The notes beneath the pieces are model-generated. The model did no database searches. It saw only the letters and a list, made by a program, of their open reading frames with translations, and was not told the DNA's origin. From assembly GCA_951406725.2 (NCBI GenBank), contig OX597825.1, forward strand, positions 33,976,001 to 34,040,000: 64,000 nt of DNA. Direction: 5' to 3'. The stretch is from Octopus vulgaris (lineage: Eukaryota). The translations under genes and the position numbers were made by a program. This document shows, piece by piece, positions 7,688 to 63,415 of this stretch (positions within the stretch are counted from its first letter, which is position 1; every line of letters begins with the position of its first letter).

Positions 7688-7734
<47 letters not shown>

Positions 7735-7735
<1 letters not shown>

Positions 7736-18815: not shown

Positions 18816-18909
18816 CTGTGGGATGTAGTTTACAGCCTTTTTCTTCAGCACCAGGGTTACTGAGTATGCATTTATAATTAGCTGAAGTATTCAAGTTCAT
18901 CAAATTAAT
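18816..18909 (-). CDS. Cassette 1 exon C (PLAT-like)
   Basis: tctttgcAG / GTAAAT, 94 nt; INLMNLNTSANYKCILSNPGAEEKGCKLHPT. Confidence 0.75.
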
Positions 18910-30741: not shown

Positions 30742-30861
30742 CAAGAACTGGTGCTGGTGTAATTTCTTCTGAATCTGTTTGTTCATCTGGTGTAGTAGTT
30801 GTCATTATGTTAGTAGTACTGTCATATGGAGTATATGGAATAGTTGGTTCCTTAACATAAT
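30742..30861 (-). CDS. Cassette 2 exon D: Thr/Pro/acidic stalk
   Basis: ttttctaatgctcAG / GTATGT, 120 nt, phase 1-1; (D)[39 protein letters not shown]. Confidence 0.75.
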
Positions 30862-35091: not shown

Positions 35092-35185
35092 CTGCGGGGT
35101 TTAGTTTACACTCTTTTTCATCAGCACCAGGGTTACTGAATGTGCATCTATAATCAGCTAAAGTATTCAAGTTCATCAAATGAAT
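35092..35185 (-). CDS. Cassette 2 exon C (PLAT-like)
   Basis: 94 nt, intact AG/GT; IHLMNLNTLADYRCTFSNPGADEKECKLNPA. Confidence 0.75.
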
Positions 35186-36249: not shown

Positions 36250-36960
36250 TGTTAACGTAAATTTATATAGAGGGGTGAATATAGAAGCAAGAATGATTGC
36301 TAACAATTTTAAAGTTAGCGACAGGATAGAATACCTCCACCCCACCCTAACCCTTTATTACCCTTAAGGACCACAAAGCTAATCTCAATAGAAACTCTAA
36401 ATGTAGACTAATTAACCCAGCTAAAACTGAAGTAGGCATTATTAGCAAAAAATATTATAGATTCTATTTTAAACAAGTTAAATCACAGTGCGGAATTTAA
36501 TCAGAAGATTTGCAATTGTAAATTCAGAGCTGCTGTCCATTAGAAGGAAATGTCTTGAGAAAAGAATACTTTATAGAGCTAAAGTAAAAATAGATGGATC
36601 ACAAGAATACAAAACATACACAGGAGCTTCGAAAAATTCCTTCAAGACTGGGTTTTATTCCCACCAAAATTCTTTTCGATACCCCAAAAATAGGACATGT
36701 CTTGCAAAACATGTCTAGCAATTGAAGGAAAATGCTACCCATCCTTTCAATATCAGCTGGACAATTTTGGAGAAAGCAGTACCATATGACCATGGAGCAT
36801 ATAGATGCCCAATGAAATGCAATCTGTGCCTCTCTGAAAAACTTTTCCTCCTGTACCAGGATAAACATGCATTGAACCAAAGACGAGAACTTCTATATTC
36901 CTGCAGGCATGCTACAAGGTTCAAAATGTCAACTGACAAAATACTGTATGGGTAACTTTT
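36250..36960 (+). mobile_element. Penelope-like RT/GIY-YIG fragment
   Basis: FITLKDHK, CRLINPAKTEVGIISK, YRAKV...TYTGASKNSFKTGFYSH, CNLCLSEK. Confidence 0.85.
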
Positions 36961-38617: not shown

Positions 38618-38865
38618 ACTTTCCAATTTCCAAGCAGCTGTAAGGAAATTTTTTACCGTTTCATTTAATTTTAATTTTTTTACTGGATCAATTCGTGGAG
38701 TGCAAAAATCAAAGCTGAGTTGAGATCCCCTTTTACGTTTATCTGCACAAGATAATTTATTTGTGAAAACACTTGTTTCATCATTGATTAATTGAACATT
38801 GAAATAATTTGAGGTTCCAGACAAAAGTTTCCTTGAAATATAAAATGTGATTCTCCAGCAGTAAT
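38618..38865 (-). CDS. Cassette 2 exon B (PLAT-like)
   Basis: tttcAG / GTAAGT, 248 nt, i.e. an in-frame net 9-nt deletion versus the other copies; (D)YCWRITFY...NFLTAAWKLES, no stops. Confidence 0.75.
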
Positions 38866-40499: not shown

Positions 40500-40920
40500 T
40501 CAATGTTGGGAAGTCTTCAGATGATGAGAGACGAGGAGGTAAAGATTTTCTATCTCTGCATCTAAGGGAATACGGGAATACATATGTTGTGTGAACCTTC
40601 CCTTCAAGTTATTTACTGTCATGCCCATGTAGTGCTCATAATTCCAATGGATAGAGCGAGGATGGCTCAGTAAGCAGTGTTTCAACATTTACAGGTTGAG
40701 ATGGAGGGTGTGTAGATATGTGCTTCTGTCTACTGTAACATGTGATGTTAGAATTAATGTTGTCTAAAAGGAGGTAGCCAACCTTGACGTTGTGTGTATT
40801 GAAAAGCATATGGTACTTATGGTCTGTAGAGAAATGCTTCATGATCAACAACAGAAAGCTTTTGGTGAGTTGCCTGACAAAATCTAGGGTCTCAGGAGAA
40901 AAGGTTTCAATATTGATGGA
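40500..40920 (-). mobile_element. Penelope-like GIY-YIG fragment
   Basis: HKYHMLFNTHNVKVGY, YMGMTVNNLKGRFTQH. Confidence 0.75.
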
Positions 40921-40929
40921 TAGAAATCT

Positions 40930-41290
40930 CTGATGTTCATTTGTGAGACGTGACAGCAAAGAAGAGCACTCATTCACTCTTTGCATACAAACTTGGAAAG
41001 TTTGTGAGAAACCCATCGACCCAATTTGTTGACTTTTCTGATGGCACACAGGTGTTGATGAATGGTTGAATGACAAAAATCTATGCTTTTCTGCTATGGA
41101 ATTTTTTCCCACCAGGGTTTGAAGGGCATCCTCGTTGGGCTCTACAGATCTTCCAGGACGAGGCTCATCTCCCAGGCTATAGTTTTTGGCTCGAAATTTC
41201 TGGAACCACTGTTGACACTGGTTTGTACTTATTGTCCAATCCCCATAAACTGTATTAATATTCTTCTCACTTTCCATTGTGTTGTTGCCA
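40930..41290 (-). mobile_element. Mariner transposase N-terminal fragment
   Basis: NINTVYGD..CQQWFQKFR...LGDEPRPGRS. Confidence 0.8.
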
Positions 41291-41380
41291 TATATATGTA
41301 CATATATATATACAGAGATACAAATAAGATGTTAAATTATTTTTGAATGCAAGAGATGCTGTTAGAACAGAAATATTGAG

Positions 41381-42612: not shown

Positions 42613-42701
42613 TTATTTTTTACTGGTTTCATTTGTTGTAGTAATTGTCCTTATTTTAGGAGTACTGTTATATGGAGTATAACAGTACTCCTTGACATTA
42701 T
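42613..42701 (-). CDS. Cassette 3 exon D: Thr-rich tail ending in stop
   Basis: cttttaacgcccAG acceptor; (D)NVKEYCYTPYNSTPKIRTITTTNETSKK*, with the stop overlapping AATAAA. Homologous to exons D1/D2. The spliced product from 60781 would be 185 aa. Confidence 0.65.
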
Positions 42702-43059
42702 CTGGGCGTTAAAAGAAAATCGAACGAATTTGACCACCCCTTGTTTTGACCAACACCTTAGAACCATCATGGTATCTGGTGTGGTTTTTTAAACCAGACC
42801 ATGTTCTGAAAAGACACCCACATAGATTGTATATCCAATTTGGACCACCAAGAGCAGATCAGTTCTGATCTTAATGATCTTTATAGATCTTAAAATAATA
42901 TCTTTTGAGCCCTCCGTTAGATTTGCAAACCTGGCATACTTTGCATTGAAAGGTGTGCACAGACATATAGACAGTATAGTTGGTGGAGGTTCGTTTTCCA
43001 TGGGTTTGTAAATGAGATTTGAGCAAAAGAAAGGCATACATATACACAGACATACATAT

Positions 43060-43101
<42 letters not shown>

Positions 43102-43278
43102 GCATAGTTTGCAGGTGCAGGCATGGCTGTGCAGTAAGCTTGTTTTGCAACAGCATTTTTCTGAGTTCAGTCCCACTACATGGCATCATGGGCAAGTGTC
43201 TTCTAGTACAGCTTTTGGGGTGACCAAAGCCACATGAGTGGATTTGCTTGTCAGTAACTGAAAGAAGCCTGTTGTATA

Positions 43279-43319
<41 letters not shown>

Positions 43320-43719
43320 TGTGTGTGTGTGTGTGTGTGTGTTTGCCTGCATGTACATGTTTTTCTGTCAGTGTTTGTCCTCCATCACTGCTTGACAATT
43401 GATGTTGATGTGTTTCCATTTCCATAAATTTGTCTCCTGTTGAACAAATTATGTGGACTCTTCGCCTTAATCTTGGAGACAGGATCAGTCCAACTTGTCC
43501 ATCTTCCTACTGTATATGTAGACAGGAAAACATTAAAAATTGTTTCCTCCTTCACTTATCTTGGTTCCATCAAAATCGATAAAATGATGTAGGAGGAGTT
43601 AGCTAACAACTCCACAAACAAACACACCCACAAACAGAATTTCCCACATGTGTAGTAGATATGTGTGTGTGTATGTATATGTATGTATGTGTGTGCGTGT
43701 GCATATATATATATGTATC

Positions 43720-44150
43720 AGAATCGAAATCGATCAATGGAAATTGCAGATGTGTTACCAGTGCCGGTGGCATGTAAGAGAACCTTCCGTTTCGCGACCG
43801 TTGCCAGCACCGCCCCGAATGGCCTTGTGCCGATAGCACGTAAAAAGCACCATCTGTTCGTGTCCGTTGCCAGCCTTGCCTGGCCCTCGTGCCGGTGGCA
43901 CATAAAAAGCACCATCCGTTCGTGGCCGTTTGCCAGCTCTGTCTGCCACCTGTGCGGGTGGCACGTAAAAAGCACCCACTACACTCACGGAGTGGTTGGC
44001 GTTAGGAAGGGCATCCAGCCGTAGAAACACTGCCAGATTTGACTGGGCCTGATGAAGCCTTCTGGCTTCACAGACCCCAGTAGAACCGTCCAACCCATGC
44101 TAGCATGGAAAACGGACGCTAAACGATGATGATGATGATGATGATGATGA
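43720..44150 (+). mobile_element. RTE 3'UTR fragment with (GAT)n tail
   Basis: Homologous to 28160-28480 and reverse complement of 46760-47250. Confidence 0.85.
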
Positions 44151-45122
44151 TGTATGTATGTGTGTATGTATGTATGTATGTATGTATTTATGTATGTATA
44201 TGTGCATATACGTACATACATCAGGCTTCTTTCAGTTTAGCAGGCACTTGTACAGCATAAATAATCTATCTTTTGACTCCAAAAGGACCAAAGGCAAAGC
44301 TGACCTGATAAAGTTTGCGACACAACTCCACATAATAGACTTTGAAAATCAATTAATGTGAAACCGGTTAAGTGTACATATGTGTGTGTGTGTATATATA
44401 TATATATGTATATATATGTATGTGTGTGTCCAACCTATGCATGTATGGACGATGAACATTACATGATGATGATGTATGTATTAAAATTCAAACAACTTCA
44501 TATATTCTCCAAGCATTTTCAACTTCATTCATTTCTTCTGCACAATTATTTGTTTGGATTGGTAATGATTTCACCTTCTCTCTCTGTGTACAGAACATAT
44601 GGTATAATTATGAAAGGGCAAATTTTAGCCATTTTTCTGCAGACTGAAAAAAATCGCAACCTGTCCATGGGAATCTTAGTCCACACAGTATCAATATATT
44701 GATACTGTGTGGACTATTATAATATATATAATACATATGTAACATATGGTATAATTATAAACAGACAGCGCAAATTTTAGCCATTTCTTCACAGAATGAA
44801 ACAATTTATGAACAACCTTAATCAATTTTCAAACCTTATTGGGTTCTTATTGGGTTCATAATTCTGACAGGCTCCAGAGGAACAAGCAGCCAAACTGCTT
44901 ATATACTCAACAAATGCAGCTGTTACTATATGAAGGAATCCCTAATTTGCATACTGAAAGTGTTTAACACTCTATAAGTACCAGCGACCTGTCAATGGGG
45001 ACTTTAGTCCACACAGTATCAAGATATGATATAATATGTATGTAACATATGGCATAATTATAATATATATATTTATCTACGTTTATAGCTCATTAACTAC
45101 ATAGACATATGTTATAATTTAC

Positions 45123-45216
45123 CTGTGGGATTTAGTTTACAGCCTTTGTTGTCAGCATCAGGGTCATCGAGTGTGCATCTATAATTAGCTGAAGTATTCA
45201 AGTTCATCAAATTAAT
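45123..45216 (-). CDS. Cassette 3 exon C: C-terminal part of PLAT-like domain
   Basis: ttttttgcAG / GTAAAT, 94 nt, phase 0-1; INLMNLNTSANYRCTLDDPDADNKGCKLNPT. Confidence 0.8.
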
Positions 45217-45293
45217 CTGCAAAAAAGTGAAATAAAAATGCAAAGCATGTAGCATGTAACACACACACACATATATATACGTATATATGTAAG

Positions 45294-45339
<46 letters not shown>

Positions 45340-45426
45340 TATATGTATATATGTATGTATATATATATATATATCACCGTCACCGTGACCGACCAGGCTA
45401 TCAGATGTTGCTACACATCGCTGGTC

Positions 45427-45475
<49 letters not shown>

Positions 45476-45574
45476 ATATTAATTAGAGTCAAAACCACTA
45501 TTATGCAAATCAAACAAAGAAAGACTTAATCCAATACATAAAAAATTTTATATAAATTAAATAAAATTAAATTC

Positions 45575-45622
45575 GCCACTACAATTGTTTCGTGTCTCTT
45601 CTAAGGACATTCATCAGGTGGT
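45575..45622 (-). ncRNA. Minimal type I hammerhead ribozyme motif
   Basis: ccac CUGAUGA augucc...gacac GAAAC aauu GUA gugg: intact core, stems I and II, palindromic loop 3. Confidence 0.7.
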
Positions 45623-47046
45623 TTTCAAATCTAAAAATAATCAATATTTTTAAGATATAAATTTAAAATGACTAAAAAATATAAATATTATAAATTTATC
45701 AATGAAAAAATATATATATAATCTATATATAATCTATATATAATCAAGAACTAAAATAACCTCTATAAACAATTGAATATAATGAAACCTAGTATTTAAG
45801 TTCTCATATTTAAAGATGAAGAATCTAAATTCAAAAAACAAAAAAACAAAAAGCAAAAATTAAAATATAAATACACACATACTCATACACATATATCTAA
45901 GTATATATATAAACATATCTAAATACATACACTAACTCACACACCCATATATATATCTCTATACATACACATAAACATCTAGGCAACGATAAATTAATAA
46001 AGTAGCCGTATACTTCTACACATTACTTATTCATACTCCCACACACACACATACAACCCTCATTCATAAACACACTCACTCAGCATGACAACAACACAGA
46101 GGAAACACCACATCCAGCAGCCGCAGATACTCAACCACAACCCACAGAAACATTTCATTCTTAGCAAGAAACTACCAAATACCATATACCACATATATAC
46201 AACAACCATACATAAATACTTAAAACAAACACACACACACACATATTCTAAATACCGCATGCATGCAACAAACATACACAAATACGCAAACAAACACACA
46301 CACACGCACACATTCACACATACATAAACACCCAAAAGAAAACAACATTTCTACACATAAACAATGCACACCCCCACACACACACACACAATCACTCACA
46401 CACAACCGCACTCCCACCGCAACACTCCAACACAGAGGAGTAACAAATTCAGCAGATACATACACTCAGCCACACACATACAGGAACATTCCCTACTCAG
46501 CAATATACTGTTAAAAACACCAACACCACTCTAAAACAAATTTATGAATAGGAATAATAACTTATATAAGATTATTCTATTATTAAACATAACCTAAACC
46601 ATTTAAAACGAACCTATCTATTTATCAAAGTATGTCTAAATTATTTAATAACTAATAACAAAGAAAAATACGATAAATAGATCACTACATAAACAACAAG
46701 ATTAACATAAGGAGAATATATTATTCAAAAGCTTATACATATTAAAATTACAATTTATATCATCATCATCATCATCATCATTTAACGTCCGCTTTCCATG
46801 CTAGCATGGGTTGGACGGTTCAACTGGGGTCTGGGGAGCCCGAAAGCTGCACCAGTCCAGTCAGATCTGGCAGTGTTTCTACAGCTGGATGCCCTTCCTA
46901 ACGCCAACCACTCCGAGAGTGTAGTGGGTGATTTTATGTGCCACCGACACAGGTGCCAGACGAGGCTGGCAAACGGCCACGCTCGGATGGTGTTTTTTAT
47001 GTGCCACCGACACAGGTGCCAGACGAGGCTGGCAGACGGCCACGCT

Positions 47047-49693
47047 CGGATGGTGTTTTTATGTGCCACCGACACAGGTGCCAGATGAGGCTGGCAAACG
47101 GCCACGATCGGATGGTGTTTGTTACGTGCCCACAGCACGGAGGCCAGTCGATGCGGTACTGACTACGGCCACGTTCGGATGGTTTTCTTGTGTGCCACGT
47201 GCCACCGGCACTGGTACCACAAAGATACAAATTCCATTGATGTTCATCTATTTTGATTTGTTTTGATTTGATTTGATTTTGATTTTCACTTGCCTCAACA
47301 GGTCTTCACAAGTGTCACAAGAAGGAAGGTATGCACAGGTGGACTGACTAGTCTTGCCGGGTCTTCGGATGGTGTTTTTATGTGCCACCGACACAGGTGC
47401 CAGATGAGGCTGGCAAACGGCCACGATCGGATGGTGTTTGTTACGTGCCCACAGCACGGAGGCCAGTCGGTGCGGTACTGGCTACGGCCACGTTCGGATG
47501 GTTTTCTTGTGTGCCACCGGCACTGGTACCACAAGATACAATTCCATTAATGTTCATCTATTTTGATTTGTTTTGATTTCATTTTGATTTTCACTTGCCT
47601 CAACAGGCCTTCACAAGTATCACAAGGAGGAAGGTATGCACAGGTGGACTGACTACGTCCCAGGTAGGGGCCATGGGATATGGCCTGACTAGTCTTCCCG
47701 GGTCTTCGGATGGTGTTTTTATGTGCCACCGACACAGGTGCCAGATGAGGCTGGCAAACGGCCACGATCGGATGGTGTTTGTTACGTGCCCACAGCACGG
47801 AGGCCAGTCGGTGCGGTACTGGTTACGGCCACGTTCGGATGGTTTTCTTGTGTGCCACCGGCACTGGTACCACAAGATACAATTCCATTAATGTTCATCT
47901 ATTTTGATTTGTTTTGATTTGATTTGATTTGATTTGTTTTGATTTCATTTTGATTTTCACTTGCCTCAACAGGCCTTCACAAGTATCACAAGGAGGAAGG
48001 TATGCACAGGTGGACTGACTACGTCCCAGGTAGGGGCCATGGGATATGGCCTGACTAGTCTTGCCGGGTCTTCGGATGGTGTTTTTATGTGCCATCAACA
48101 CAGGTGCCAGATGAGGCTGGCAAACGGCCACGATCGGATGGTGTTTGTTACGTGCCCACAGCACGGAGGCCAGTCGGTGCGGTACTGGCTACGGCCACGT
48201 TCGGATGGTTTTCTTGTGTGCCACCGGCACTGGTACCACATGATACAATTCCATTAATGTTCATCTATTTTGATTTGTTTTGATTTGATTTGATTTGATT
48301 TGTTTTGATTTCATTTTGATTTTCACTTGCCTCAACAGGCCTTCACAAGTATCACAAGGAGGAAGGTATGCACAGGTGGACTGACTACGTCCCAGGTAGG
48401 GGCCATGGGATATGGCCTGACTAGTCTTGCCGGGTCTTCGGATGGTGTTTTTATGTGCCACCGACACAGGTGCTAGATGAGGCTGGCGAACGGCCACGAT
48501 CGGATGGTGTTTGTTATGTGCCCACAGCACGATGGCCAGTCGATGCGGTACTGACTACGGCCACGTTCGGATGGATTTCTTGTGTGCCACAGGCACTGGT
48601 ACCACAAAGATACAAATTCCATTGATGTTCATCTATTTTGATTTGATTTGATTTTCACTTGCCTCAACAGGTCTTCACAAGTGTCACAAGAAGGAAGGTA
48701 TGCACAGGTGGACTGACTAGTCTTGCCGGGTCTTCGGAAGGTGTTTTTATGTGCCACCGACACAGGTGCCAGATGAGGCTGGCGAACGGCCATGATCGGA
48801 TGGTGTTTGTTACGTGCCCACAGCACGGATGCCGGTCGATGCGGAACTGGCTACGGCCATGTTCGGATGGTTCTCTTGTGTGCCACCGGCACTGGTACCA
48901 CAAAGATACAGATTCCATTGATGTTCATCTATTTTGATTTGTTTTGATTTTGATTTGTTTTGATTTTGATTTTCACTTGCCTCAACAGGTCTTCACAAGT
49001 GTCACAAGAAGGAAGGTATGCATAGGTGGACTGACTACGTCCCAGGTAGGGGCCATGGGTTATGGCCTGACTAGTCTTGCCGGGTCTTCGGATGGTGTTT
49101 TTATGTGCCACCGACACAGGTGCTAGATGAGGCTGGCGAACGGCCACGATCGGATGGTGTTTGTCATGTGCCCACAGCACGGAGACCAGTCGATGCGGTA
49201 CTGGCTACGGCCACTTTCGGATGGTTCTCTCTTGTGTGCCACAGGCACTGGTACCACAAAGATACAAATTCCATTGATGTTCATCTATTTTGATTTGTTT
49301 TGATTTTCACTTGCCTGAACAGGTCTTCACAAGTGTCACAAGAAGGAAGGTATGTACAGGTGGACTGACTACGTCCCAGGTAGGGGCCACGGGTTATGAC
49401 CTGACTAGTCTTGCCGGGTCTTCGGATGGTGTTTTTATGTGCCACCATGTTCCCACAGCACGGAGGCCAGTCGATGCGGTACTGGCTACGGCCACGTTCG
49501 GATGGTTTTCTTGTGTGCCACAGGCACTGGTACCACAAAGATACAAATTCCATTGATGTTCATCTATTTTGATTGATTTTCACTTGCCTCAGCAGGTCTT
49601 CACAAGTGTCACAAGAAGGAAGGTATGCACAGGTGGATCGACTACGTCCCAGGTAGGGGCCACGGGATATGGCCTGACTAGTCCTGCCGGGTC
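47047..49693. repeat. Eight tandem ~270-366-bp copies of the RTE stop codon plus proximal 3'UTR
   Basis: Junction gccgggtcttcgga recurs at about 47367, 47708, 48073, 48439, 48735, 49089 and 49423. Confidence 0.92.
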
Positions 49694-51720
49694 CTCTCAT
49701 GCACAGCACACTTCCATAGGACTCGGTCTTCAGTCATTTCCTTGGTGAGACCTAAAGTTCGAAGGTCGTGCTTCACCACCTCGTCCCAGGTTTTCCTGGG
49801 TCTACCTCTTCCACAGGTTCCCTCAACTGCTAGGGTGTAGCACTTTTGCACACAACTATCTTCAGCCATTCTCGTCACATGACCATACCAGCGCAGCCGT
49901 CTCTCTTGCACTCCACAACTGACACTTCTTAGGTTCAACTTTTCTCTCAAAGTACTTACACTCTGACGATTATGAACACTGACATTACACATCCATCGGA
50001 GCATACTGGCTTCATTTCTTGCAAGCTTACGCATATCCTCAGCAGTCACGGCCCATGTTTCACTACCATGTAGCATGGCTGTACGTACACACGCATCATA
50101 TAGTCTGCCTTTTACTCTTAGCGAGAGGCCTTTTGTCACCAGCAGGGGTAAGAGCTCTCTAAACTTTGCCCAGGCTATTCTTACTCTAGCAGTTACACTT
50201 TCAGCACACCCACCCCCGCTACTGACTTGGTCTCCTAGGTAGCGGAAGCTATCAACTACTTCTAGTTTGTCTCCCTGGAACGTGGTAGAAGTTGGTCTCT
50301 GCACATTTCCAGTGTTTATTGCTCCTGAGCATCTGCCACAGACAAAAACTATTTTCTTAGTTAGCCTTCCTTTGACATTGCTGCACCTCTTATGTGTCCA
50401 TAGCTTACACTTGGTGCACCTTATAGAGTTTCTACCTACACCTTTTTTACAGATCGAGCAGGGCCATCTACATGAAGTCGTTTGTGATTGGTCCACCTTC
50501 CTACTTATTAGGACTTTGGTTTTGGCTAGGTTGATTCTAAGGCCCTTCGGTTCTAATCCTTGTTTCCACACCTGAAACTTCTCCTCCAGTTCTGATAGTG
50601 ACTCAGCAATTAGAGCAAGGTCATCAGCATAGAGGAGCTCCCAGGGGCATCCTGTCTTGAATTCCTCCGTTATTACCTGGAGGACTATGATAAATAGGAG
50701 GGGACTGAGGACTGAACCTTGGTGGACCCCAACCTCTACCCGGAATTCTTCACTGTACTCGTTGCCAACCCTCACCTTACTAGCAGCGTCTCTGTACATG
50801 GCTCGCACAGCTCTCACTAACCATTCATCTATCCCTAGTTTCCTCATTGACCACCAGATAAGGGATCGGGGGACCCTGTCAAAGGCTTTCTCCAAGTCAA
50901 CAAAAGCCAGATACAAGGGCTTATCTTTGGCTAGGTATTTCTCCTGCAGCTGTCTTACCAGAAATATAGCATCAGTAGTACTTTTCCCTGGCACGAACCC
51001 AAACTGCATATCATCTAAGCTAACTCTCTCTCTAATTAATTGGGCTATAACCCTCTCCGTAACCTTCATTACCTGATCCAGCAGCTTGATGCCCCTGTAG
51101 TTATTTGTATCTAGGGCGTCGCCTTTACCTTTGTAGCAGTTGACTATTATGCTGCTACACCAGTCATTGGGTATGACTCCTTCGTGTATCACCTGGTTTA
51201 CTATACGGGTGACTAAGCTATAGCCGACACTACCAGATATTTTGAGCATCTCTGCAGTAATTCCTGATGGGCCTGGGGCTTTCCCTGTTTTCATGCTTCT
51301 AATTGCCTTATCTACTAAGGAACTGTTAACTCGGATTGCTGGTCTCTCTGTTGGGTCGACATTCGGGAGACTCTCTTTATCCCATTCATTTTCCTCATTC
51401 AGCAACCTTTCATAGTGGCATCTCCAAGCCTCTCTCTTTGCATCCTCATTTAGCGCAAGTGAACCGTCATCCTTGCGAACATATTTCTCTCCTACCACGT
51501 CACGATTCTCTCTCACACACTGTCTTGCAACACGAAATACCTCAAGTCTTTCATCCTCACGGCGCAGGACATTGGCAAATTTTTCTTTATCTGCCTCCCC
51601 TCTGGCTAGATAGACCTGTCTCCTAGCTTCCCTTCTGGCAGTCTGATACACTTCCCTGCTACCACCGTTCTTCCAGGCCTTCCAAGCCTGTTTCTTTTGT
51701 CTAATAACCCTGTCAACAAT
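49678..51720 (-). CDS. RTE reverse transcriptase (5'-truncated) with PHD-like Cys/His insert
   Basis: 657-aa ORF-track entry, open up to ~51720; QFGF, DLEKAFD, HQGSVLSP, YADD, CSIC...CTKC...H..C...CGRC, GRPRKTW. Confidence 0.93.
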   Translation of the reverse strand: MVDRVIRQKKQAWKAWKNGGSREVYQTARREARRQVYLARGEADKEKFANVLRREDERLEVFRVARQCVRENRDVVGEKYVRKDDGSLALNEDAKREAWRCHYERLLNEENEWDKESLPNVDPTERPAIRVNSSLVDKAIRSMKTGKAPGPSGITAEMLKISGSVGYSLVTRIVNQVIHEGVIPNDWCSSIIVNCYKGKGDALDTNNYRGIKLLDQVMKVTERVIAQLIRERVSLDDMQFGFVPGKSTTDAIFLVRQLQEKYLAKDKPLYLAFVDLEKAFDRVPRSLIWWSMRKLGIDEWLVRAVRAMYRDAASKVRVGNEYSEEFRVEVGVHQGSVLSPLLFIIVLQVITEEFKTGCPWELLYADDLALIAESLSELEEKFQVWKQGLEPKGLRINLAKTKVLISRKVDQSQTTSCRWPCSICKKGVGRNSIRCTKCKLWTHKRCSNVKGRLTKKIVFVCGRCSGAINTGNVQRPTSTTFQGDKLEVVDSFRYLGDQVSSGGGCAESVTARVRIAWAKFRELLPLLVTKGLSLRVKGRLYDACVRTAMLHGSETWAVTAEDMRKLARNEASMLRWMCNVSVHNRQSVSTLREKLNLRSVSCGVQERRLRWYGHVTRMAEDSCVQKCYTLAVEGTCGRGRPRKTWDEVVKHDLRTLGLTKEMTEDRVLWKCAVHERTRQD

Positions 51721-52429
51721 ATATTTATATATTTATATATATATATTTATATATATAGATATATATATTCCTACCCATGCATGCTTGGAAGATGGGCAAC
51801 AATGATGATAATACACACACATATATATATGTATGTGTGTGTGTATGTGTGTAGTCAGTGAATCACATATCCTAAAAAAAGCACACTCTAAAAGTTAGAG
51901 CAGTAAGGTATTTACATGAAATTAAATATATGTTCGGTCATAGAGTAACCAGTGGTTTTGTATCCATAAAGTGTTTAGCTCTAAAGACAACACGTTGGAC
52001 TCCAATGGTCATGGGTATATTACCTCTCTTCAAGCTAGAGGTAGAAAACCGTTACAGTCAGTGAATTTGCAAACAGAACAGTAATATATACTATCTGAAC
52101 CTTAAAGGAGATAGGTTATCACCCTTAGATCGGTCAGGTTGGCAAATCTTACAGACCTAAAGTACAAACGGGGACTCTCCACCCTTAAGTTAGTTCTGGT
52201 CTGCAAATACTTTTTACAGCACTAATCAACGAACTAGGAATCCCACACCTGTGCCAGGTACTGTTTGAAATGGGGGCAGGGGCAATATATCTCATGTCTT
52301 GTGTTTAAGAGAGACTGCAATCCAGCGAATCTTTAAGGATCCTTGCTTGCTCTGCTATGCAAAGCTTGGATCATCCACTCTTTATACAGGTTTCTGGCTG
52401 CTCTATGATCTTCCATTTACCTTCATCAT

Positions 52430-52560
52430 TCAGGCATCACACATGGCTGGCCAAGGATGTAATGTAACGTTTTTCAGGAATCCTACAAGATAAACTGTGG
52501 TTGTACAGGCGCTGCTTAAAGGCAGTTTCGGTCAACCCGATATAGCTCCAAAATTGAGTA
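52430..52560 (-). mobile_element. Penelope-like GIY-YIG fragment
   Basis: SYIGLTETAFKQRLYNH...TSLASHV. Confidence 0.75.
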
Positions 52561-53999
52561 CTTGTTGTGTTCTCGCCTCTGGTGTATCTTCCATTAACTT
52601 TGGGCATGTAGTCGTTGTTGTTGTTACTGCTACTCTTGCCCAGAATTAACAGTGATGGCAGCCATAATACTATTAGCAACATCATGAACACTCAGCTATA
52701 GATTACTATGGGAACATCCAAAGACAGATGAGTCTAACAAAAATGTTTCCAGTGAAATTACTCTTTTGGCCCTTAAGGTTGATTGTACATGTTTTCACTT
52801 TGAAAGGTTCCATATGGTCCTTTCGCATTGACGCTTCTGTTCTATTTTATTGGCCGCTGGACTTCTTATTCATGACCACACTGTACTAGCCATTACTCTT
52901 CCCTAGTCCCTATGAATAGATACGTTTGTTATAGCCAATCTGTGACCTTCTTATTCGTTGTTGTGGATAGCTACCACAGACCCATTCAGCTTTCCTCGGG
53001 TGACGTGTACTATGGAAAGTCACATATCTGCCAGGTATTTCTCCATTTCAACTGGAGATGAATATTGTGGCTTCCTTTCAGTGTGATTGATGTGCTAATA
53101 AATTATACTTCTTTAGGGAGGAAAGTCGCTAATGAAGACGTCAACACTCTAATTACTGGACTGAGTCATTAATCTAATGGCTGCGAAATGCCTCTGGTGC
53201 AATAAATGACAACAATACTCGTGTCCGTACGTGAGCAACTTCGTGTCCAAGGTTTTATTCAGATGTGTAACAAACAAACTCATGCTGTTAGAACACAATG
53301 TTCAATAAAGTTATCTGGGATTGAAGTAGAAGGTTCTGAACATTTTGCCATGTTCCACGACGTCAGTGAGAAAATAGAGGGAATTTAAACTACTGCTTGA
53401 CAACTATTGGTGTGTTTACATCCCCCATATCGTAGTGGTTTAGCAAAAAGAGACCAATAAATATATCTATATCTAATAAGTGTGTATATATATATATAGT
53501 CTTATTCACACATTCCATCTTACAAGATTACTCACAAGGCATTGATTGTCTCAGGGTTATAGCAGAAGTCACTTGCTCAAGATGCTGCACATTCAGATTG
53601 AAGCTGAAGCTACCCAGCCATACCTGCACCTATGGCTACACTGATGTGTGCTTTGTCTGTGTCTATGCATGTGTGTGTGTGTGTGTGTGTGTTTGTGTGT
53701 GTGTGTTGGGGGTTTCCTTTGAGTTTTAATTAAGTTCTTCTTTAGAGGGTTCAAGTTGTTTGCCAACAAAGTGACAAGGCTTTTTGAGTTAAGAGAGCTC
53801 CCAGTGTTTGTAAATATGTGGTTGAATTAGTGTGTTGGTTGAACTGTAGCTACATACACCCAAGTGTGTGCATCTATTCACATTAGAATCTCAGACACAG
53901 AATTTTTGAAATGTCTTACAAATCTTCTCTGTGCCACTAATGGATTGAATTTGGAGAACCCACTTTTTTCTGTGAAACTGTGTTATTTCTAGGTTTATA

Positions 54000-55450
54000 T
54001 GCAAAATTGTTGGTACATATCCTATTGCACCTGTGAAGATAGGTACAAATGAGAATACAGTCAGGGTACAAGAGCTGTAAGTTTCACATTTGCACTGAAA
54101 TTATGATTTTATCGAAGTGTTCCACTAGTATTTCTTGCTCTTGAGGGTGTTATAGCATGCCTTTAATATATACGTCAGAGCAGTCTTTCCTTTGGATAGC
54201 ATTGTAAATAGCCTTTGTAACTATATCATGCCTCAGGGACAGGTAGTATCTCATAGACATTTTGGAGCAGCTGCTAATGATGTGGCTGATATCCTTCACA
54301 CTGGTATAACAATACTACCCATTTTTTTAACACGTTATGGAAGTTTTGTAGTATCTTTGTCTCTCTTGTTTAGCAGGTATTTAATAGATATCTCATCTTT
54401 CTGAATAGCGAAGGTATATCTTTCTAGCTGGGATGTAATGTATCTATCGGGATCCCAGGAGAGACTGCTCTTCCTGTCAATACTATTGTTACTCTCTATC
54501 TTATGGGATATGTACCCCATGCATTGCTTTTTGCTGGTATTATGATGCCTGCTTCTCCTTTTCAAGCTTCTGCTTAAGATGGCCAGTCCAGTCTCCATTG
54601 AGTTGCATAATATGGGTGTATTCTCAAAGTACCCACACAGTAGTTCTCCAACTCTGACGATGTTGTTGCTCTCTCTTTTGAGTATGCATAGAATGTACTC
54701 ATCTCTTCCTTTACTGTTCAGCAGGTGTTGTCTGAGTGATACAATGCAAATTCCAAAGGTTGTTTGGACTGACCCTATGCCTCTACCATCACCATTCCAC
54801 CTCACATATATCCTATTGGTGTTGTTGTTAATGTGGAAGTTGCCAGTGGTGGTCAGTACCTTTCTGGTTTTGATGTCCAAACTGCATATCTCATCAAATG
54901 TCCAATCCAATATCCCAAATGTTGGTATTAGCAATGGTACTGCAAAAGTATTGTGAAATATGGTCTTGTTAAATGCAGACAGCCCTGACTTCCATATTTT
55001 CCAGAGTCTACAGAAGTACTTTGTTGTTTTCTTGGCTTTAGTCACAACACCAACATATGCAACATTCTCATCGATTCTGAGGTACTTGTAGCTTTCATCA
55101 ATAGAAATTGTGGAGATGACAAGCTGTTGACATTCATATTCTCTGTCTGATCAACAATTTTTCCTCGATTGACTATCACATATAAGCATTTATCTTGCTT
55201 CAACTCCATTCCTTTTTCTCGTGTAGTTCTAACTATCTCTTGATGCTGATCATATTACACTTTAGGTCATCAAGAAAAATGTGTGGATGACATATTCTTT
55301 CCTGCATATCCCAGCATGTAGCCTTCGCATTTTGTTAACAGGGCTGACCAGGGATTCACTGCTAATACAAACAGTATTACAGATAAAAAGATTATCACAG
55401 TAGAATATATCTGTTGATAGCTTAACTCTGTTTGTGCCAACAGGTGTTAC
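54000..55450 (-). mobile_element. R4/Dong-like element (cassette 3 copy)
   Basis: Near-identical to 21740-23230; includes HIFLDDLKV RT motif region. Confidence 0.8.
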
Positions 55451-55641
55451 TTTAGTTGATTATGTTCTACATTAAAAGGAGATATCTTTATATCCTTATA
55501 TTTATGTACCTGTTTCATTACCTGGATTGAAAGTTGTGTGAGAAAGTAGCCAAAGGGCTCGATACCGCTATGTTATCATCCAAATTGGAAACAGGAACTT
55601 TTGAGTAACATGATGATGCTGCAAAATCACACACATGCACA

Positions 55642-55672
<31 letters not shown>

Positions 55673-55780
55673 GCGCATGCACACACATGCACGCACACAC
55701 ACACACACACACACGCATGCACACACACACACACACACACACACACGGATTAAAAATGAAAATTCTATCTAAATACTTAC

Positions 55781-56037
55781 ACTTTCCAATCTCCAATCAG
55801 ATACAAATCCTTTAATGAAATTTTTTGCTGTTTCATTTAATTTTAATTCTTTTACTGGATCAATTTGTGGAGTGCAAAAATCAAAGCTTGGTTGAGATCC
55901 CCTTCTACATTTATTTGCACAAGACATTTTATTTGAGAAAACACGTGTTTCATCATTGATTAATTGAACATTGAAATAATTTGAGGTTCCAGACCAAAAT
56001 TTCCTTGAAATATAAAATGTGATTCTCCAGCAGGAAT
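55781..56037 (-). CDS. Cassette 3 exon B: N-terminal part of PLAT/LH2-like domain
   Basis: tttcAG / GTAAGT, 257 nt, phase 1-0. (D)[27 protein letters not shown]...[11 protein letters not shown]...DWRLES resembles PLAT motifs AGT-x-N-V-x-I, FERGS-x-D-x-F and GW-x-LES. Confidence 0.8.
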
Positions 56038-57999
56038 CTGAAACAAAACAGCATAAGATAATGTTTATTACACAGACTGACTGTTTGCAACAATACTGTT
56101 TGTATACATTTTATCTTTTATTTTTTTCAGTCATTGAACTGCAGCCATGCTGGGGTACTTCACACAAACCTAGCTCTTCAGGTTTAGGCGACCGAATGGA
56201 GAGAGGGAGGAAATTCAGCATGGCTACTGGAGATTGGGCTGCTATTGGTCAAGGTGGGTCACATAGTGACGTTGATTAGGATTGAACAATCCTTATGTGT
56301 TTGTGGCATATGGATGGTTATTATGAGTGAGAATCTTAAACGAAACCAAATGCTGGTGCATGTGGAGGAGGGAGTAAGCTTGATGTGTGAATGCATGAAT
56401 GTGCACATGTGGTGTGCATGTGTGAGTGTATGTGTATGCACACACATATGCGGTTGAGTTCATTGGTGAATGTGTACAAGTTAGCTTGTGCATGTGTGTG
56501 TGTATGTTTACTTGGGTGCACGAACGTGTGGCTATGGGTAGGTAGGAGCTATGTATGTGTGTTTGTGCACACACATGTGTGTGGGGGTGGGTATACATGT
56601 GCATAAATATATGCTCTATGTATGCATGCATGTATGTTTGTATGCATGCATGTATGAATGTGTGTGTGTGCATATAAATATGCCTGCTCTACATGAATAT
56701 GTACATCATTGTATTTGTATGTGTATGTATATGTGCGTGTGTATATTTACACTTATACAAATATACATGCATATATTTAAATCAAAATAAGCAACAAGGA
56801 TATGCTTATTTTGATTCTAATCACCTTATTTTGAAATTTTATGGATAATACCGTACCAAATTTCTGGTGCCTCAACTCACGTACCATGTTCATCTAAATC
56901 TAAATTTTTACATCTATTTAAATATGTATACATATGTACACATACTTATGCACACATATACGTGTGTAACTGGTTGAATGTGGATTCATTCTTTAATTGG
57001 AATGGTTTCCAAAAGGATTTCTAACATTGATTCTTCATACTTTGCTGAGAGTTTACTGGTGTAAATTGGCAAAGATATGAACAATAGTATTAGAATATCA
57101 AGTGTATGATTAATTTATGGAATGAAGTTCTACAAATCTAATCATATTTGTCGAAAATAGAGGAGATAAGATGTTAAAAAGGTTTAAGAAGTTTATTCAT
57201 GCATACAATTGTTTCGTACATAGATGTAAATTCATATTTGAATTTGGAAATTATCATAGTACTCATCAGCATAGAGAAAAAAAGAGCAGAGAAGTTGGAT
57301 CTATGAGTTTCATGTTTAACTGTTCCTATCTATGTGTGATAGTGATGAGAGTCATGTCAATTATTAAACCACAACTAACGGATGAACGGTTAAGAGATGA
57401 TATAAATATAGAGATATCAATAACACTCTATAGATTAGTAAAGATTTGCTAATTAACTCTCCAAGTATGTGCACAGAGTGAGTAAGTTAGAGAAATGTCC
57501 AATGAGGAAATGTTACCTAAAGTAAATTAAATCTGACCGTTAAAAACAATACTTGGTTTGTTTTTTTTAAATCATAAACAGATGAAGAAAGTTTAGTGCA
57601 AAGAAATTATGTTTGTAAAGCTTATAATAGAAAGTTAATGAAGTCATTTATGAAAATATAGGGGGAGGTGGAGGAATTGAAAAAATGAAGTGAAAGTGGA
57701 TTAAGGACTCTTGTTTACTCAAGATTCATATTATGGTAACATGGAGGTATAACAAAGGAGAAAGTGAGAAAAAGTGGTAATTCAAATGGAAATATGATGA
57801 TTAAGGTTGTATTATACTTACAAAGTCTATTGTTAGGAATAGAGATAAGAGAACATTTAGGAGATGTAGTAAGAAGAGAAGTATAGAAGCGATAAGCTAA
57901 TGAATTAGAGAGGGTGAAAAGGAAACGAGATTTTACTAGAGTAGGGGAGATAAATAAGAAGAAAAAATAATAATGATCAAGTATGAGATGTAATGAGTG

Positions 58000-58250
58000 G
58001 AGGCATGTGGCTTAGTGGTTAGGGTGTCAGCACCATGATCGTAAGATTGTGTTTTCGATTCCTGGACCGGGCGACGTGTTGTGTTCTTGAGCAAAACACT
58101 TCATTTCACATTGCTCCAGTCCAATCAGCTGGCAAAAATGAGTAATGCTGCGATGGACTGGCGTCCCGTCCAACTGGGGAACACATACGCCATAGAAACC
58201 GGGCCCATGAGCCTGGCTAAGCTTTAAAAGGGCGCATTTATTTATTATTT
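58000..58250 (+). mobile_element. Full-length tRNA-derived SINE
   Basis: A box tggcttagtgg, B box gttttcgattcc, (TTA)-type tail. Confidence 0.8.
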
Positions 58251-58996
58251 TATGTAATGAGACAAGTGAATGTTAAAAATAAAAGAGAGATTAATGATAA
58301 AAGTATTGAATGTGTAGGATAATGCTATACAAAAGGAATATTTTGTATATATAAAAAGTTATGTCAAGAGTATTATGTGAGAAGGATAGGGTATGGCTAT
58401 ATTTTATCATAATGAATGTTATATACATGTTATATAGGTTCAATGCATGTAAATATATTAAAAATAATTATTATTATGATCTACAAGTAGAAGATACTTG
58501 TAGGGGTACGTATAAAGTTACAAAATTATAGGATAAATGCTTATCATATATGGAGTAGAGTGAATGTATATGCAATCACATATGTATATAGAGATATATA
58601 TGCACATATAAGCATATAGATACACAAATATATACATATACATACACACTATATACACATGAATAATTAGGGAACTGGCAGAATTGTTTGAGGATTGGAT
58701 AGGCTGCCTTGATGTATCTGTTCTAGCACTGTGCATTTTGAACCCAAATTCTACTTCATCAGGAAAAAATAGTGACACATCTGTCAGGATTTGTAGCCAA
58801 TAGATAGTAACTGCTATTTTGGGAAAACAATGGAAATGTAAGGAAATGTAATTTCCTGAATTTGATATCTCTATACGTTTATTAATATTTTGCTAAAACT
58901 GAAGCAGATGATGGTACAATATTAAAAAAATAAACAATATCCAATTTGGTAGCACACTGCAAATATGCTTAAAACAAATATTATTTTAATACATAC

Positions 58997-59068
58997 CTTT
59001 TGGCATTGGGTTGTTCTGTATTTGTAGATCTTTTGCACTCTTGTAATGTTTATTCTGATCCACGGAGC
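58997..59068 (-). CDS. PLAT-like gene, 72-nt linker exon ((S)SVDQNKHYKSAKDLQIQNNPMPK)
   Basis: attctttAG|...aaag|GTATGT; symmetric phase 1-1, open, joins the signal exon and exon B in frame. Confidence 0.7.
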
Positions 59069-59399
59069 CTAAAGAATTATTGATAATTAGTGTCAGAAAT
59101 TGGAGAAAAAAACTTCATTTGATGAAAAATTGATACTATTCAAAAGACTGTCAAGGTCAACTTTGCCATTCATCCTTTCAGGGTCAACAAAATAAGCACC
59201 AGTTGAATATTGGGTTCAATGAAATGGACATATACTCTCCACTAAAATTGCTGGCCTTGTGCCAATATTAGAAATCAAAATTAAAAATCAATATTATTTC
59301 AAAGTTTTTCTGAATATTAGTTGTATCTTTCATGTCAATGGTTGTTATTAACTGTAGTGTTATCCTATTGATCTAGATATTTTTAACAGAAATTTTATC

Positions 59400-59810
59400 C
59401 TTTGGCTCCCATGCCGGTGGCATGTAAAAAGCACCATTTGAGCATGATCTTTGCCAGCAATGCCTTACTGGCACATGTGCTGGTGGCACGTGAAAAACAA
59501 CATTCGATCATGGTTGTTGCCAGTGCCGCTGGACTGGCTCCCATGCAGGTGGCATGTAAAAAACACCTTTCAGCATGGTCATTGCCAGTACCACCTGACT
59601 GGCCCTCATGCTGATGGCATGTAAAAAGCACCCACTACACTCTTGGAGCGGTTGGCATTAGGAAGGGCATCCAGCTGTAGAAACTTTGCCAGGTCAGATT
59701 GGAGCCTGGTGCAGCCGTCTAGCTTGCCAGTCCTCAGTCAAACCATCCAACCTGTGCCAACATGGAAATCAGACGTTAAATGACGACGACAATGATGATG
59801 ATGATGATGA
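59400..59810 (+). mobile_element. RTE 3'UTR fragment
   Basis: Internal ~55-bp repeats, ggaagggcatccagctgtagaaac, (GAT)n tail. Confidence 0.8.
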
Positions 59811-60735
59811 TATTACTTGTTCCAGTTTTTAAACTGTAGCCATGCTGGGGCACATCTTTGAAGAATTTTGGTCAAAGGAATGAAGTCCAGTATTTAGTTT
59901 TTCTTATTCAGCCTATTGCTCATTCTGTTAGTTCCTTTTGCTGAATTGGTAAGTTATAGGGGCATAAACAAACTAACATGTGTTATCAAGTGGTGGTGGA
60001 GACAAATACAGACACACACATATATGTATGCTATACACAGCCTCTCGCACTCTCACACATATACACACGTCCACACACACACACATATACATAAATACAC
60101 ATACACACACAGGTGCACATTATTTTAAACTCACACAAGCATACATTCACATTTTTCTTAACTCTCTCTCTCTCTCTCTGCCCAAGTAAACCATGTACCT
60201 CCTCTACAGCGAGGCATCTGTTTCTGTTTTTCTGTCTCCATGTCACTCTAACCTTTTATCATCTAACAGAAGCTCACCTCCTCCAATGTCCCCTTCCCTC
60301 ACGAAGATTTCTTGTCTTACAAGTTACTTGGTGACCCTGCCACTTAAAAAGTACCCAGAGCATCCAGCTGTAAAAACCATGCCTAAACTGACCTCATCTG
60401 TGCTGGTGCAACATAAAAAGTGCTCAGCCCACTCTATGAGGTGGTAGCCGTTAGAAAGGGCATCCAACCAAACAAACCATGCCAAAACAGACACAGACGT
60501 TTAGTGGAGTCACCTACCTGGTGAGCTTCTGTCAAACTGCCCAGCCCACGCCAAGATGGAAGGTAGATGTTAAATGACAGCAATGATGATATATATATAT
60601 ATTAATATACACACACACAGAATTATGATAATGCAACTGAAATGTAATATTGTGGCATTATATAAAAATGAAATGATGAGATGAAAATTATTATTTTAAG
60701 AATTCATGAAAGAAGTTATGAGTTAGAATACTTAC

Positions 60736-60781
60736 TGTAAGCTATTTGCAGGAGAGAAAGCAAAATGAAAATGCGATTCAT
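60736..60781 (-). CDS. PLAT-like gene, first coding exon (signal peptide MNRIFILLSLLQIAY)
   Basis: Minus strand reads ttttatttactttcAG|att ATG...tac a|GTAAGT: strong acceptor 3 nt before ATG, consensus phase-1 donor, hydrophobic core typical of a signal peptide. Confidence 0.75.
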
Positions 60782-61059: not shown

Positions 61060-62330
61060 CTGAATAATAATTGTCCCCCCTCCACAATACAACACGGACG
61101 TAGATACACCTAATTATTTATGCGGCTGTAGGGATAGAACAAAGTGTCATTCCTCAAATAGATGTAAGAGAAATAACGTAGTTTACCAGTGTGACGTCCG
61201 CACAAACAACCAGACGAAATCATACATAGGTGCAACTAAGAACCAAATGATTCTCAGATATAATGCGCACCTATCGAGCTTCAGAAATAGGAATAAGGCT
61301 AACTTAACAGGACTAAGTACGTACATTTGGGAACTTAAGGATAAAAAAATAGATTTTAGCTTAAACTGACGTATAGTCACAAAAGCAACCTCCTACAACA
61401 CCGCAAATAGACGCTGTGATTCTCTGCCTATCAGAACGCCAAGCTATACATACGGCTATGCAAACCCTTCTCAACAGAAAATTTGAGAACATTTTTTTGT
61501 CTTCACGTGCGCCTTTATTTATTTTTGAAATATCGGTAGAATAGCCCCTCTTGTCTTCATGCAGGCCTCCAAACACTTACACACGAATAGTCACCCTACA
61601 AACCCACTCACCCACAGCATTCCATAAGAATACACTTTGCAAATACATAGGGCCCCTCCTAGCACTAAGAACTTCCTAAGCTCTAGCAATAAGACAATTA
61701 TTAGCCGTAACACATTTTCAAACCATCCAAAATTTGGTATGAGTTACCTCCCTTGGCAACCTGTTAGAGTTACCTCCCTTCAGATACACCACTGGTGTTA
61801 ACTAATCGTAAAATACAAAATTGAATACACACATTCGAAAATAATGTTCGAAACCCGCACCTAAATAATACTCACCCCGCCCTAATTACCTAACGAAACT
61901 AACCAATCTACCACAAGCAAACCTCTAACCAACGAATTTACCAACACAAGAACAAAATTTAATGTAAGAATTACTACTTTTGTTTACATTACCATCACAT
62001 ATGTATAAATTATTTCCGCATCCTAACCGATGCATCTATCTATATTCGCATTCTGAAGAGATTCACTTAAATCAGTAAATTGAAACGATCGTAAATGCTA
62101 CTTTCATCTCTGCTTCTTCCTTCTTTGTTATCTAATTATCTTATCAGCGAAAACCACGAGTTTCCCAATGTTATTATATCTATTTTCTTCTCCTATATAA
62201 CCTAAACTACGGTTTACCAACCGAACCACCTGCTACCGTACAACCTTACAAAAGACGGTACCTACCCAGGTAATAACTAGGAGCGACTCTGGATTTAATT
62301 ATCCCTTAGAGGTATTAAACCCCTCTAACA
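61060..62330 (+). mobile_element. Penelope-like element 3' part
   Basis: YQCDVRTNNQTKSYIGATKN...RYNAH GIY-YIG; hammerhead motif downstream. Confidence 0.8.
62048..62098 (+). ncRNA. Minimal type I hammerhead ribozyme motif
   Basis: gcauu CUGAAGA gauucacu...aguaaauu GAAAC gauc GUA aaugc. Confidence 0.7.
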
Positions 62331-62626: not shown

Positions 62627-63415
62627 CTAGCATTATGACCCATCTCTGCCGGGTCATAGTGCTAGTGCATGTATATATGTGTATATATATGTGTACATAT
62701 TACATGTACATCTATATATATACATCTACACATAGAATACAAAATACAAAGTTATATCTTGATATCTCCAGTGATAACAATACTGAAAATATATAACAGA
62801 CTGGAATTGTAGGACTATTACATTTCTGCACGCTTCTTTTATTTTTTATTTATTCCCATTCATGTGAAACCACTTATTCAAGTTCAAATCCTTGATGCAA
62901 TTTTATACCAATTGCTATTTTTACTTTTGTTATGTTACGATTATATTATACTTTAGTTTGATTTTAATTATTACTTACTACATATAATTCAATTGTTATT
63001 ATTATTTTTATTGTTAAAGTGAAAGTATCTGACATAAAATAGAGAAATGTTTTTGTTTCACTTTTAACACGTAATACTGAAATAGTGGAGAAGATATGAT
63101 ATTGCTATGGGCTCGCCCTAGGCAAGAAGTTGAACATTTTTTGCCCATGATACTACATGGACCCTAAGTAAGGCATGTGTCAAATTTGAATGAAATTGGT
63201 TGTGTAGTTCTCGAGTTTTAGGGAATCATAGTGGAGAAGATATGATATTGCTGTGGGCTCGCCCTAGGCAAAAAGTTAAAGTTTTTTGCCGATGACACTC
63301 CCCGGACCCTAAGTAAGACATGTGTAGAATTTGAATGAAATTTGTTGTGTAGTTCTCAAGTTTTAGGGAAACACACAGACAGACAGACACACATTCTCAG
63401 TTTTATATATAGAGA
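62627..63415 (-). mobile_element. Non-autonomous Helitron with internal ~145-bp tandem duplication
   Basis: CTAG end plus atgaccc/gggtcat hairpin; 63080-63225~63228-63370. Confidence 0.7.

Follow-up and report, generated by a model that had tools for sequence, protein, structure and literature searches.

Introduction

Tandem PLAT repeats without a catalytic domain are known from LOXHD1-type proteins, which are intracellular, carry about 15 repeats and are not known to have a signal peptide. Smaller PLAT-only proteins have been described in plants and tetranychid mites: according to the accessible part of one report, single-PLAT proteins of less than 200 residues are found in both, with 21 genes in Tetranychus urticae (PMC6288829). 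One of these, TuPLAT10, is presented in the available portion of another source as having a predicted signal peptide and a transmembrane helix; there it is suggested to be a phosphatidic-acid carrier, and PLAFP is cited as a soluble carrier of this lipid (bioRxiv 10.64898/2026.05.13.724795). Arabidopsis PLAT1/PLAFP is classed with the plant PLAT-plant-stress proteins in an excerpt of PMC4232524. Here we analyse a gene on the minus strand of a 64,000-nt window of Octopus vulgaris DNA (contig OX597825.1), and all coordinates are positions in this window. A preliminary description had reported there a small secreted protein of 185 residues with a single PLAT-like domain, hidden across 18 kb of repeats. 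Most likely that protein represents no more than the first third of a three-PLAT gene. On balance we favour a reading in which the exons between 60.8 and 42.6 kb are the 5' part of one 44.5-kb gene that encodes a likely secreted three-PLAT lipid-surface binder of 391-431 residues.

Compared with the LOXHD1-type proteins, the octopus product starts with a predicted signal peptide and contains three Cys-rich repeats. Judged from the accessible text on them, the spider-mite PLATs (TuPLAT10 and 20 others) resemble the octopus proteins in being lineage-restricted, expanded, non-catalytic PLAT-only proteins of animals, and most of them lie below the Pfam cut-off, as the octopus domain does. They have one domain; the octopus proteins have domains in tandem, each with six Cys, as well as Ser/Thr stalks and, in paralogs, Tyr-rich tails. 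The plant PLAT-plant-stress proteins are, in the same partial sources, likewise PLAT-only and non-catalytic but single-domain. The preliminary description thus overstated its case in calling a stand-alone PLAT unusual, single-PLAT proteins of plants and spider mites being described in the available parts of PMC6288829 and bioRxiv 10.64898/2026.05.13.724795. The octopus family differs from known PLAT-only proteins in that its Cys-rich domains are arranged in tandem, its Ser/Thr stalks are optional and some paralogs have tails rich in Tyr. No mite or plant PLAT protein was found among the sequence matches of the octopus domain profile; plant-dominated clusters appeared only as Atlas feature neighbours (0.87-0.88). 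PMC4890752, whose accessible part concerns a polycystin, was set aside as not relevant.

A probable three-repeat gene and its Octopus counterparts

The gene was rebuilt from bare end points, and exons, splice sites and frames were re-derived. Five minus-strand exons (exons 1 to 5a in Table 1), separated by GT/AG introns, splice into 558 nt coding for 185 residues and a stop. The frame comprises a hydrophobic N-terminus, a 24-residue linker, a domain of about 116 residues with six Cys and a tail. Exons, introns, frame and six-Cys domain therefore stand as first described, and so does their setting amid 18 kb of repeats, the introns holding microsatellites, tandem arrays and a reverse-transcriptase open reading frame. 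The tail, initially described as Thr-rich, is rich in Ser and Thr taken together (9 of 28 residues) and contains in addition a seventh Cys. Exon 3a is identical to the public O. vulgaris model P0004 and 83-85% identical to O. bimaculoides and O. sinensis proteins; the five matches among 28 candidates in this search were all Octopus proteins. This shows that the 185-residue frame is not a product of chance.

The gene probably does not end at 42613, as had been proposed, because further repeats and a sixth exon lie downstream. Self-comparison of the window revealed three copies each of exons 3, 4 and 5, all in one orientation, while exons 1 and 2 are single. We named the three sets unit a (56.0, 45.2 and 42.7 kb), unit b (38.9, 35.2 and 30.9 kb) and unit c (24.1, 18.9 and 16.6 kb). 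All three copies of exon 3 and all three copies of exon 4 are flanked by AG and GT and have open, phase-compatible frames. Joining exons 1, 2, 3a, 4a, 3b, 4b, 3c, 4c and 6 yields 391 residues, or 431 with the stalk exon 5b, over a span of 44.5 kb. The 391-residue model is 79.3% identical over 391 columns to the 394-residue O. bimaculoides protein P0003, with a single 3-residue gap. The acceptor of exon 6 is live in unit c and dead in the copy of unit b (around 30570), and that of the stalk exon is dead in unit c, which fits internal and terminal repeats of one gene. The three-repeat architecture is thus very likely, and would replace the single stand-alone PLAT as main product.

P0003 and P0005 both belong to the O. 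bimaculoides locus LOC106876762 and P0002 to the O. sinensis locus LOC115218130. All three share the predicted signal peptide and the domain of the O. vulgaris gene and contain two to four tandem repeats: two plus a stalk in P0005, three in P0003 and four in P0002. A stalk matching exon 5b is present in P0005 and not in P0003. The linker of P0002 differs from that of the window gene and, judged by sequence, P0002 may be a paralog rather than an ortholog. These proteins are annotated as uncharacterized or 'Ig-like' only, and no PLAT annotation is shown. The public model P0004 runs beyond 42.6 kb, skips exon 5a and terminates in exon 6, with 274 of 274 aligned residues identical. P0004 and P0005 each hold a chimeric domain that combines exon 3 of one repeat with exon 4 of the next; this junction is allowed by the phases and reflects either real splicing or a prediction error. 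The present model would correct the chimeric public gene model and the 'Ig-like' label, and gives a fold to an unannotated Octopus family.

Secretion of the product, part of the preliminary description, is likely from its sequence features: residues 4-13 have a mean hydropathy of 2.7 and are followed by small residues, and the same ten residues are found in P0002. The predicted signal peptide would be cleaved near residue 16. Disulfides would form in each Cys-rich domain, N-glycosylation could occur in repeats a, b and c, all of which contain sequons, and the optional stalk may be O-glycosylated. No lipase, lipoxygenase or other catalytic or channel domain scored above the Pfam cut-off in any of the five homologs scanned, and P0002, P0003 and P0005 start at the same Met, in agreement with the earlier view that the protein is not part of a lipase or lipoxygenase. 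Searches of the window with P0004 and P0006 (tblastn) found no transmembrane or tail exon.

The repeated domain adopts a predicted PLAT fold

Structure modelling indicates that the domain is almost certainly a divergent member of the PLAT fold that lies below the Pfam cut-off. An AlphaFold model of a single domain, based on an eight-row octopus-only alignment, has eight strands (pLDDT 73). All 33 rows listed by Foldseek were lipoxygenases, lipases or Rab6IP1, which we take to hold a PLAT domain. In an unbiased structural search, eight of 48,161 chains reached Z>=8 and all eight were PLAT-bearing (Z 10.6-12.1, root-mean-square deviation (rmsd) 2.3-2.7, 105-114 aligned residues), the best row having Z 12.1, rmsd 2.6 and 114 aligned residues; a second search gave values up to Z 12.6. 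The best non-PLAT row reached Z 6.3. The assignment first made by eye is thus borne out by the structural comparisons. The PLAT domains of lipoprotein lipase, pancreatic lipase and lipoxygenases share this fold (Z 11-12.6, with an rmsd of about 2.5 across 102-115 residues), and those of the lipases are extracellular, as the octopus protein probably is. They differ from it in sequence (7-15% identity) and in being attached to a catalytic domain, which the octopus protein lacks, and their loops correspond to it by range only.

The motifs agree with this fold. Gly-Thr after strand 1 and Trp before strand 6 are present in 11 of 11 repeats, and Arg-Gly before strand 4 in 9 of 11. Four Cys are invariant in all 11, and the other two are lost in one and two repeats, respectively. 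When the domain profile was compared with 1.84 billion representatives, eight matches were obtained: four Octopus proteins, one 13-PLAT protein (P0011, E 7.4e-6) and three others. The alignment to P0011 is colinear over about 95 positions, with matching motifs. The three others, an RTX, a Calx-beta and an SprB repeat protein, were rejected as sums of partial matches over repeats. Atlas feature neighbours included PLAT clusters at 0.85-0.88, which is a lead only. Pfam returned no family for any of five single exon translations. The sequence search of solved structures gave one irrelevant match for P0002 (E 1.5) and none for the domain profile. The UniRef label 'Ig-like' of P0003 and P0005 is unsupported, the best Ig/FN3-type row reaching Z 5.5 (rmsd 3.2, 82 aligned residues) against 10.6-12.1 for PLAT.

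Proposed binding to lipid surfaces

Given the fold and the three-repeat architecture, lipid binding is reasonably probable by analogy with known PLAT domains. Each repeat would dock on a membrane or lipoprotein through its strand 5-6 loop and its strand 1-2 loop, and three repeats would add avidity, leading to multivalent binding of lipid surfaces. Lacking a catalytic domain or membrane anchor, the protein would act as a carrier, coat or decoy. In all 11 repeats the strand 5-6 loop combines 2-4 aromatic with 1-3 basic residues, its hydrophobic moments being 0.39-0.88, and it is the most variable stretch; it is a helix in all three repeats of the low-confidence model of P0003. The structural alignment places the Trp-rich PLAT loop of lipoprotein lipase at about the same region, by range and not at residue level, if a 27-residue signal offset is assumed for the lipase numbering. 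This lipase loop (residues 387-394) binds lipoproteins with a retention that depends on avidity, according to the accessible part of PMC8319833.

The Asp that follows Gly-Thr is Ser in all 11 octopus repeats and the His-Asp-Asn motif is absent, whereas most repeats of P0011 keep both; other acidic residues are found nearby. We presume that the replaced acidic residues (Asp after Gly-Thr, Asp after strand 5) are calcium ligands in PLAT domains. Since they are replaced in the octopus repeats, calcium dependence seems unlikely, and lipid binding would probably be calcium-independent. According to the available portion of PMC7436259, membrane binding by lipoxygenase PLAT domains occurs both with and without calcium, and their loops vary.

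The window gene appears to belong to a small Octopus family with close homologs found only in Octopus, in collections that are mainly microbial; no squid, cuttlefish or other mollusc homolog appeared in them. The search with P0006 returned six matches among 906 candidates, all from Octopus. P0007 of O. bimaculoides is a model of a single-PLAT paralog. A transmembrane helix follows the stalk in P0006, in P0010 and in the upstream part of P0004. Two of the three paralog tails have 9 Tyr, 2-3 YxN and 3-4 YxxPhi motifs, and the third lacks them. Among the paralog models there was no complete PLAT-stalk-helix-tail protein, P0006 and P0010 carrying parts of the domain only. Close O. bimaculoides locus numbers, among other evidence, suggest that the paralogs are clustered in the genome. 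Searches of O. vulgaris proteome supplements by identifiers and peptide motifs (posterior salivary gland by identifiers only; skin mucus; ink) gave no match, and these supplements may be incomplete and use other identifiers. A literature search whose coverage leaves out most subscription papers found no paper on an octopus PLAT-only family or on three of the family identifiers.

The window protein would be the soluble counterpart of paralogs in which the same domain is carried on a stalk with a transmembrane helix and a tyrosine-rich tail. A more specific proposal, which we regard as speculative and rather unlikely, is an Octopus-specific paired receptor/decoy system in which the membrane paralogs signal through their tails and the window gene provides a soluble multivalent partner. 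Clustered paralogs would then carry on a mucin stalk a PLAT domain that diversifies fast and is stabilised by disulfides, and splicing from exon 3 of one repeat to a later copy of exon 4, with which the phases are compatible, might create chimeric domains. If so, this would be a lipid-pattern recognition family of new architecture and, if the paralogs signal on lipid binding, a cephalopod receptor family that was not found in the literature searched. In any case the family, well defined and of putative function, joins those of plants and spider mites as another lineage in which PLAT domains, detached from enzymes, have multiplied. In Octopus they occur in probably secreted proteins with several repeats, alongside paralogs that are predicted to be anchored in the membrane and have tyrosine-rich tails.

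Counter-evidence and alternative explanations

Several observations weigh against a secreted three-PLAT lipid binder. The comparators are gene models, and P0004 departs from the three-repeat model in having two domains, exon 3b being joined to exon 4c, and a 262-residue upstream extension. Pfam detected PLAT in none of five whole proteins. The PF01477 profile, proposed as a check in the preliminary description, remained below its curated cut-off of 23 bits, with an E-value of 0.0069 in one of three aligned domains only; comparable E-values correspond to about 17 bits in whole-protein scans. The model of the three-domain P0003 repeats the strand pattern three times over at low confidence (pLDDT 56), and in the single-domain model the key loop is a coil, with pLDDT <50 at residues 76-78. 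Repeat b lacks one Cys. The divergence of the exons is about equal to that of adjacent introns, as neutral decay would also give, and the window repeats differ from each other mostly by non-synonymous changes, with dN/dS of 1.49-1.75 (Fisher p 0.29-0.38), not significantly above 1. Diversifying selection acting on a functional gene and neutral drift would both fit this pattern. Finally, PLAT domains also bind proteins, so that a shared fold alone does not demonstrate lipid binding.

The last point leads to the alternative that survives best, although we consider it unlikely: the gene has the three-PLAT architecture, and the ligands of its domains are proteins or glycans instead of lipid. The domains might then be diversifying modules that recognise microbes or parasites or act as decoys against them. 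Amino-acid variation is concentrated at alignment columns 10-14 and 69-81, which correspond to two loops, and the dN/dS values, if not significant, exceed 1. The transmembrane helices of the paralogs and the 9-Tyr tails of two of the three models would suit such a role, and PLAT domains are described as both protein-protein and membrane modules in the accessible part of PMC4232524. On the other hand, the amphipathic basic-aromatic loop is kept in 11 of 11 repeats and suits a lipid interface, and no family gives a convincing match to the tails (best Atlas score 0.84; Pfam SCIMP at E 0.006-0.009, below cut-off).

A less probable alternative, to which we give little credence, is that the main product is the 185-residue secreted protein ending in exon 5a, units b and c being unused duplicates or parts of other genes. 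Exon 5a keeps its acceptor and is open up to an in-frame TAA stop inside an AATAAA, three further AATAAA signals lie within 320 nt of this one, the original donor is lost and the donor that can be scored agrees with the consensus at 5 of 9 positions, the poorest result among the 11 sites scored. The paralog model P0007 also has a single PLAT domain. However, AATAAA is commonplace on the minus strand (63 in 64 kb, about one per kb), the exon-5a peptide motif tested is in none of the proteins compared, and a search for proteins of 64-205 residues with the domain alignment yielded no short homolog (none of five candidates scored). These three results give the short form little weight; judged by sequence, a 185-residue single-domain isoform using exon 5a as alternative last exon is possible. 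In addition, units b and c have no exons 1-2 of their own and yet have open frames, and the O. bimaculoides counterpart has three repeats. Exon 5a itself is degenerate (about 78% nucleotide identity to copies b and c, against 89-92% around exon 3). Two other configurations were rejected: another last-exon acceptor, located upstream of 42701, leads to a premature stop, and the cryptic donor found at 42624, which would join exon 5a in frame to exon 3b, is the weakest of the donor sites scored.

It is very improbable that the gene continues upstream with further in-frame coding exons and so forms just the 3' part of a longer membrane protein, as in P0004. A 3' splice site at 60784 lies 3 nt ahead of the ATG of exon 1, so that a further exon probably exists 5' of exon 1; P0004 has a further 262 residues, including a transmembrane helix (119-137), joined in frame to exon 1, and P0006 has a 35-residue extension ahead of the same start. 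The P0004 extension nevertheless consists of a paralog linker, stalk, helix and tail, matching exon 2 (78%) and exon 5c (71%) and then continuing with a helix and tail like those of P0010. P0004 therefore looks like a fusion of neighbouring genes. Its extension has no enzyme domain, and P0002, P0003 and P0005 start at the Met of exon 1.

A decaying pseudogene cluster, to which the degenerate exon 5a, the mutated acceptor of exon 5c, the lost Cys of repeat b and the similar divergence of exons and introns would point, is hardly credible in view of the complete 391-residue frame with canonical splice sites, its end-to-end conservation with another species and the in-frame nature of the only domain-exon indel.

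We return to the three-PLAT gene. Its domain exons show a single indel, of 9 nt and in frame, whereas 1 kb of intron shows 8 gaps. A rough neutral simulation with assumed rates gave a probability of 0.018 to 8e-5 that all three repeats are intact by chance, which also bears on the idea that units b and c are unused. Open frames, the in-frame indel and this low probability favour function. A tree of the 11 repeats has no well-supported branch and does not resolve one-to-one orthology. Units a and c share several kb of intron (21112-24222 versus 53392-56158) at 87-94% identity, including a retroelement fragment. This identity exceeds that of exon 5a to its copies, and the likeness suggests a recent duplication or gene conversion of exons 3-4 only.

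Features of the window

Table 1. Exons of the three-PLAT gene and other elements of the 64,000-nt window.
Feature	Position	Strand	Description
Exon 1	60736..60781	-	15 codons + 1 nt, with start Met and predicted signal peptide; single copy in window; start common to P0002, P0003, P0005
Exon 2	58997..59068	-	24-residue linker, phase 1-1; matches linker of O. bimaculoides P0003
Exon 3a	55781..56037	-	first six predicted strands of PLAT repeat a, phase 1-0; 100% identical to P0004
Exon 4a	45123..45216	-	last predicted strands of PLAT repeat a, phase 0-1
Exon 5a	42613..42701	-	degenerate Ser/Thr stalk exon; candidate alternative last exon; end point in preliminary description
Exon 3b	38618..38865	-	PLAT repeat b; variable loop shortened by 9 nt, in frame; lacks one Cys
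Exon 4b	35092..35185	-	end of PLAT repeat b
Exon 5b	30742..30861	-	intact 40-residue Ser/Thr/Pro-rich stalk exon, phase 1-1; probably optional
Exon 3c	23845..24101	-	PLAT repeat c
Exon 4c	18816..18909	-	end of PLAT repeat c; 100% identical to P0004 residues 502-532
Exon 5c	16472..16591	-	stalk copy, frame open, acceptor AA not AG; probably skipped
Exon 6, coding part	16288..16301	-	four C-terminal residues and stop; C-terminus common to P0003, P0004, P0005
LINE	49678..51732	-	684-residue frame, RVT_1 E 4.5e-32, weak PHD-finger match; fairly intact, in exon 3a-4a intron
LINE relative	26433..28024		decayed, inverted, 79% to the LINE at 49678..51732
Tandem array	47046..49696		units of 270-370 bp (366-bp period, 97% matches)
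STPR frame	13300..14196	+	298 residues with STPR repeats, PF21107 E 2.7e-11; CpG-rich stretch
LINE fragments	6763..8375	+	endonuclease match E 1e-11; split by long (TA)n expansion at 7517..7733
Transposase fragment	40636..41331	-	Mariner-type, HTH_48 E 1.4e-8
GIY-YIG-like frame	61064..61369	+	presumed, by eye
GIY-YIG-like frame	36719..36955	+	presumed, by eye
GIY-YIG-like frame	52437..52691	-	presumed, by eye
Tandem copies	63082..63370		two copies of a 145-bp unit, 89% matches

The window also contains several mobile elements (Table 1). The STPR-repeat frame presumably belongs to a Helitron-type element. Three frames resemble by eye what we take to be GIY-YIG endonuclease fragments of Penelope-like elements; two of them were scanned and gave no Pfam match at 0.001. 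The tandem copies of the 145-bp unit lie about 2.3 kb upstream of exon 1. The tandem array in the exon 3a-4a intron directly follows the end of the LINE frame and is possibly an amplified LINE 3' end.

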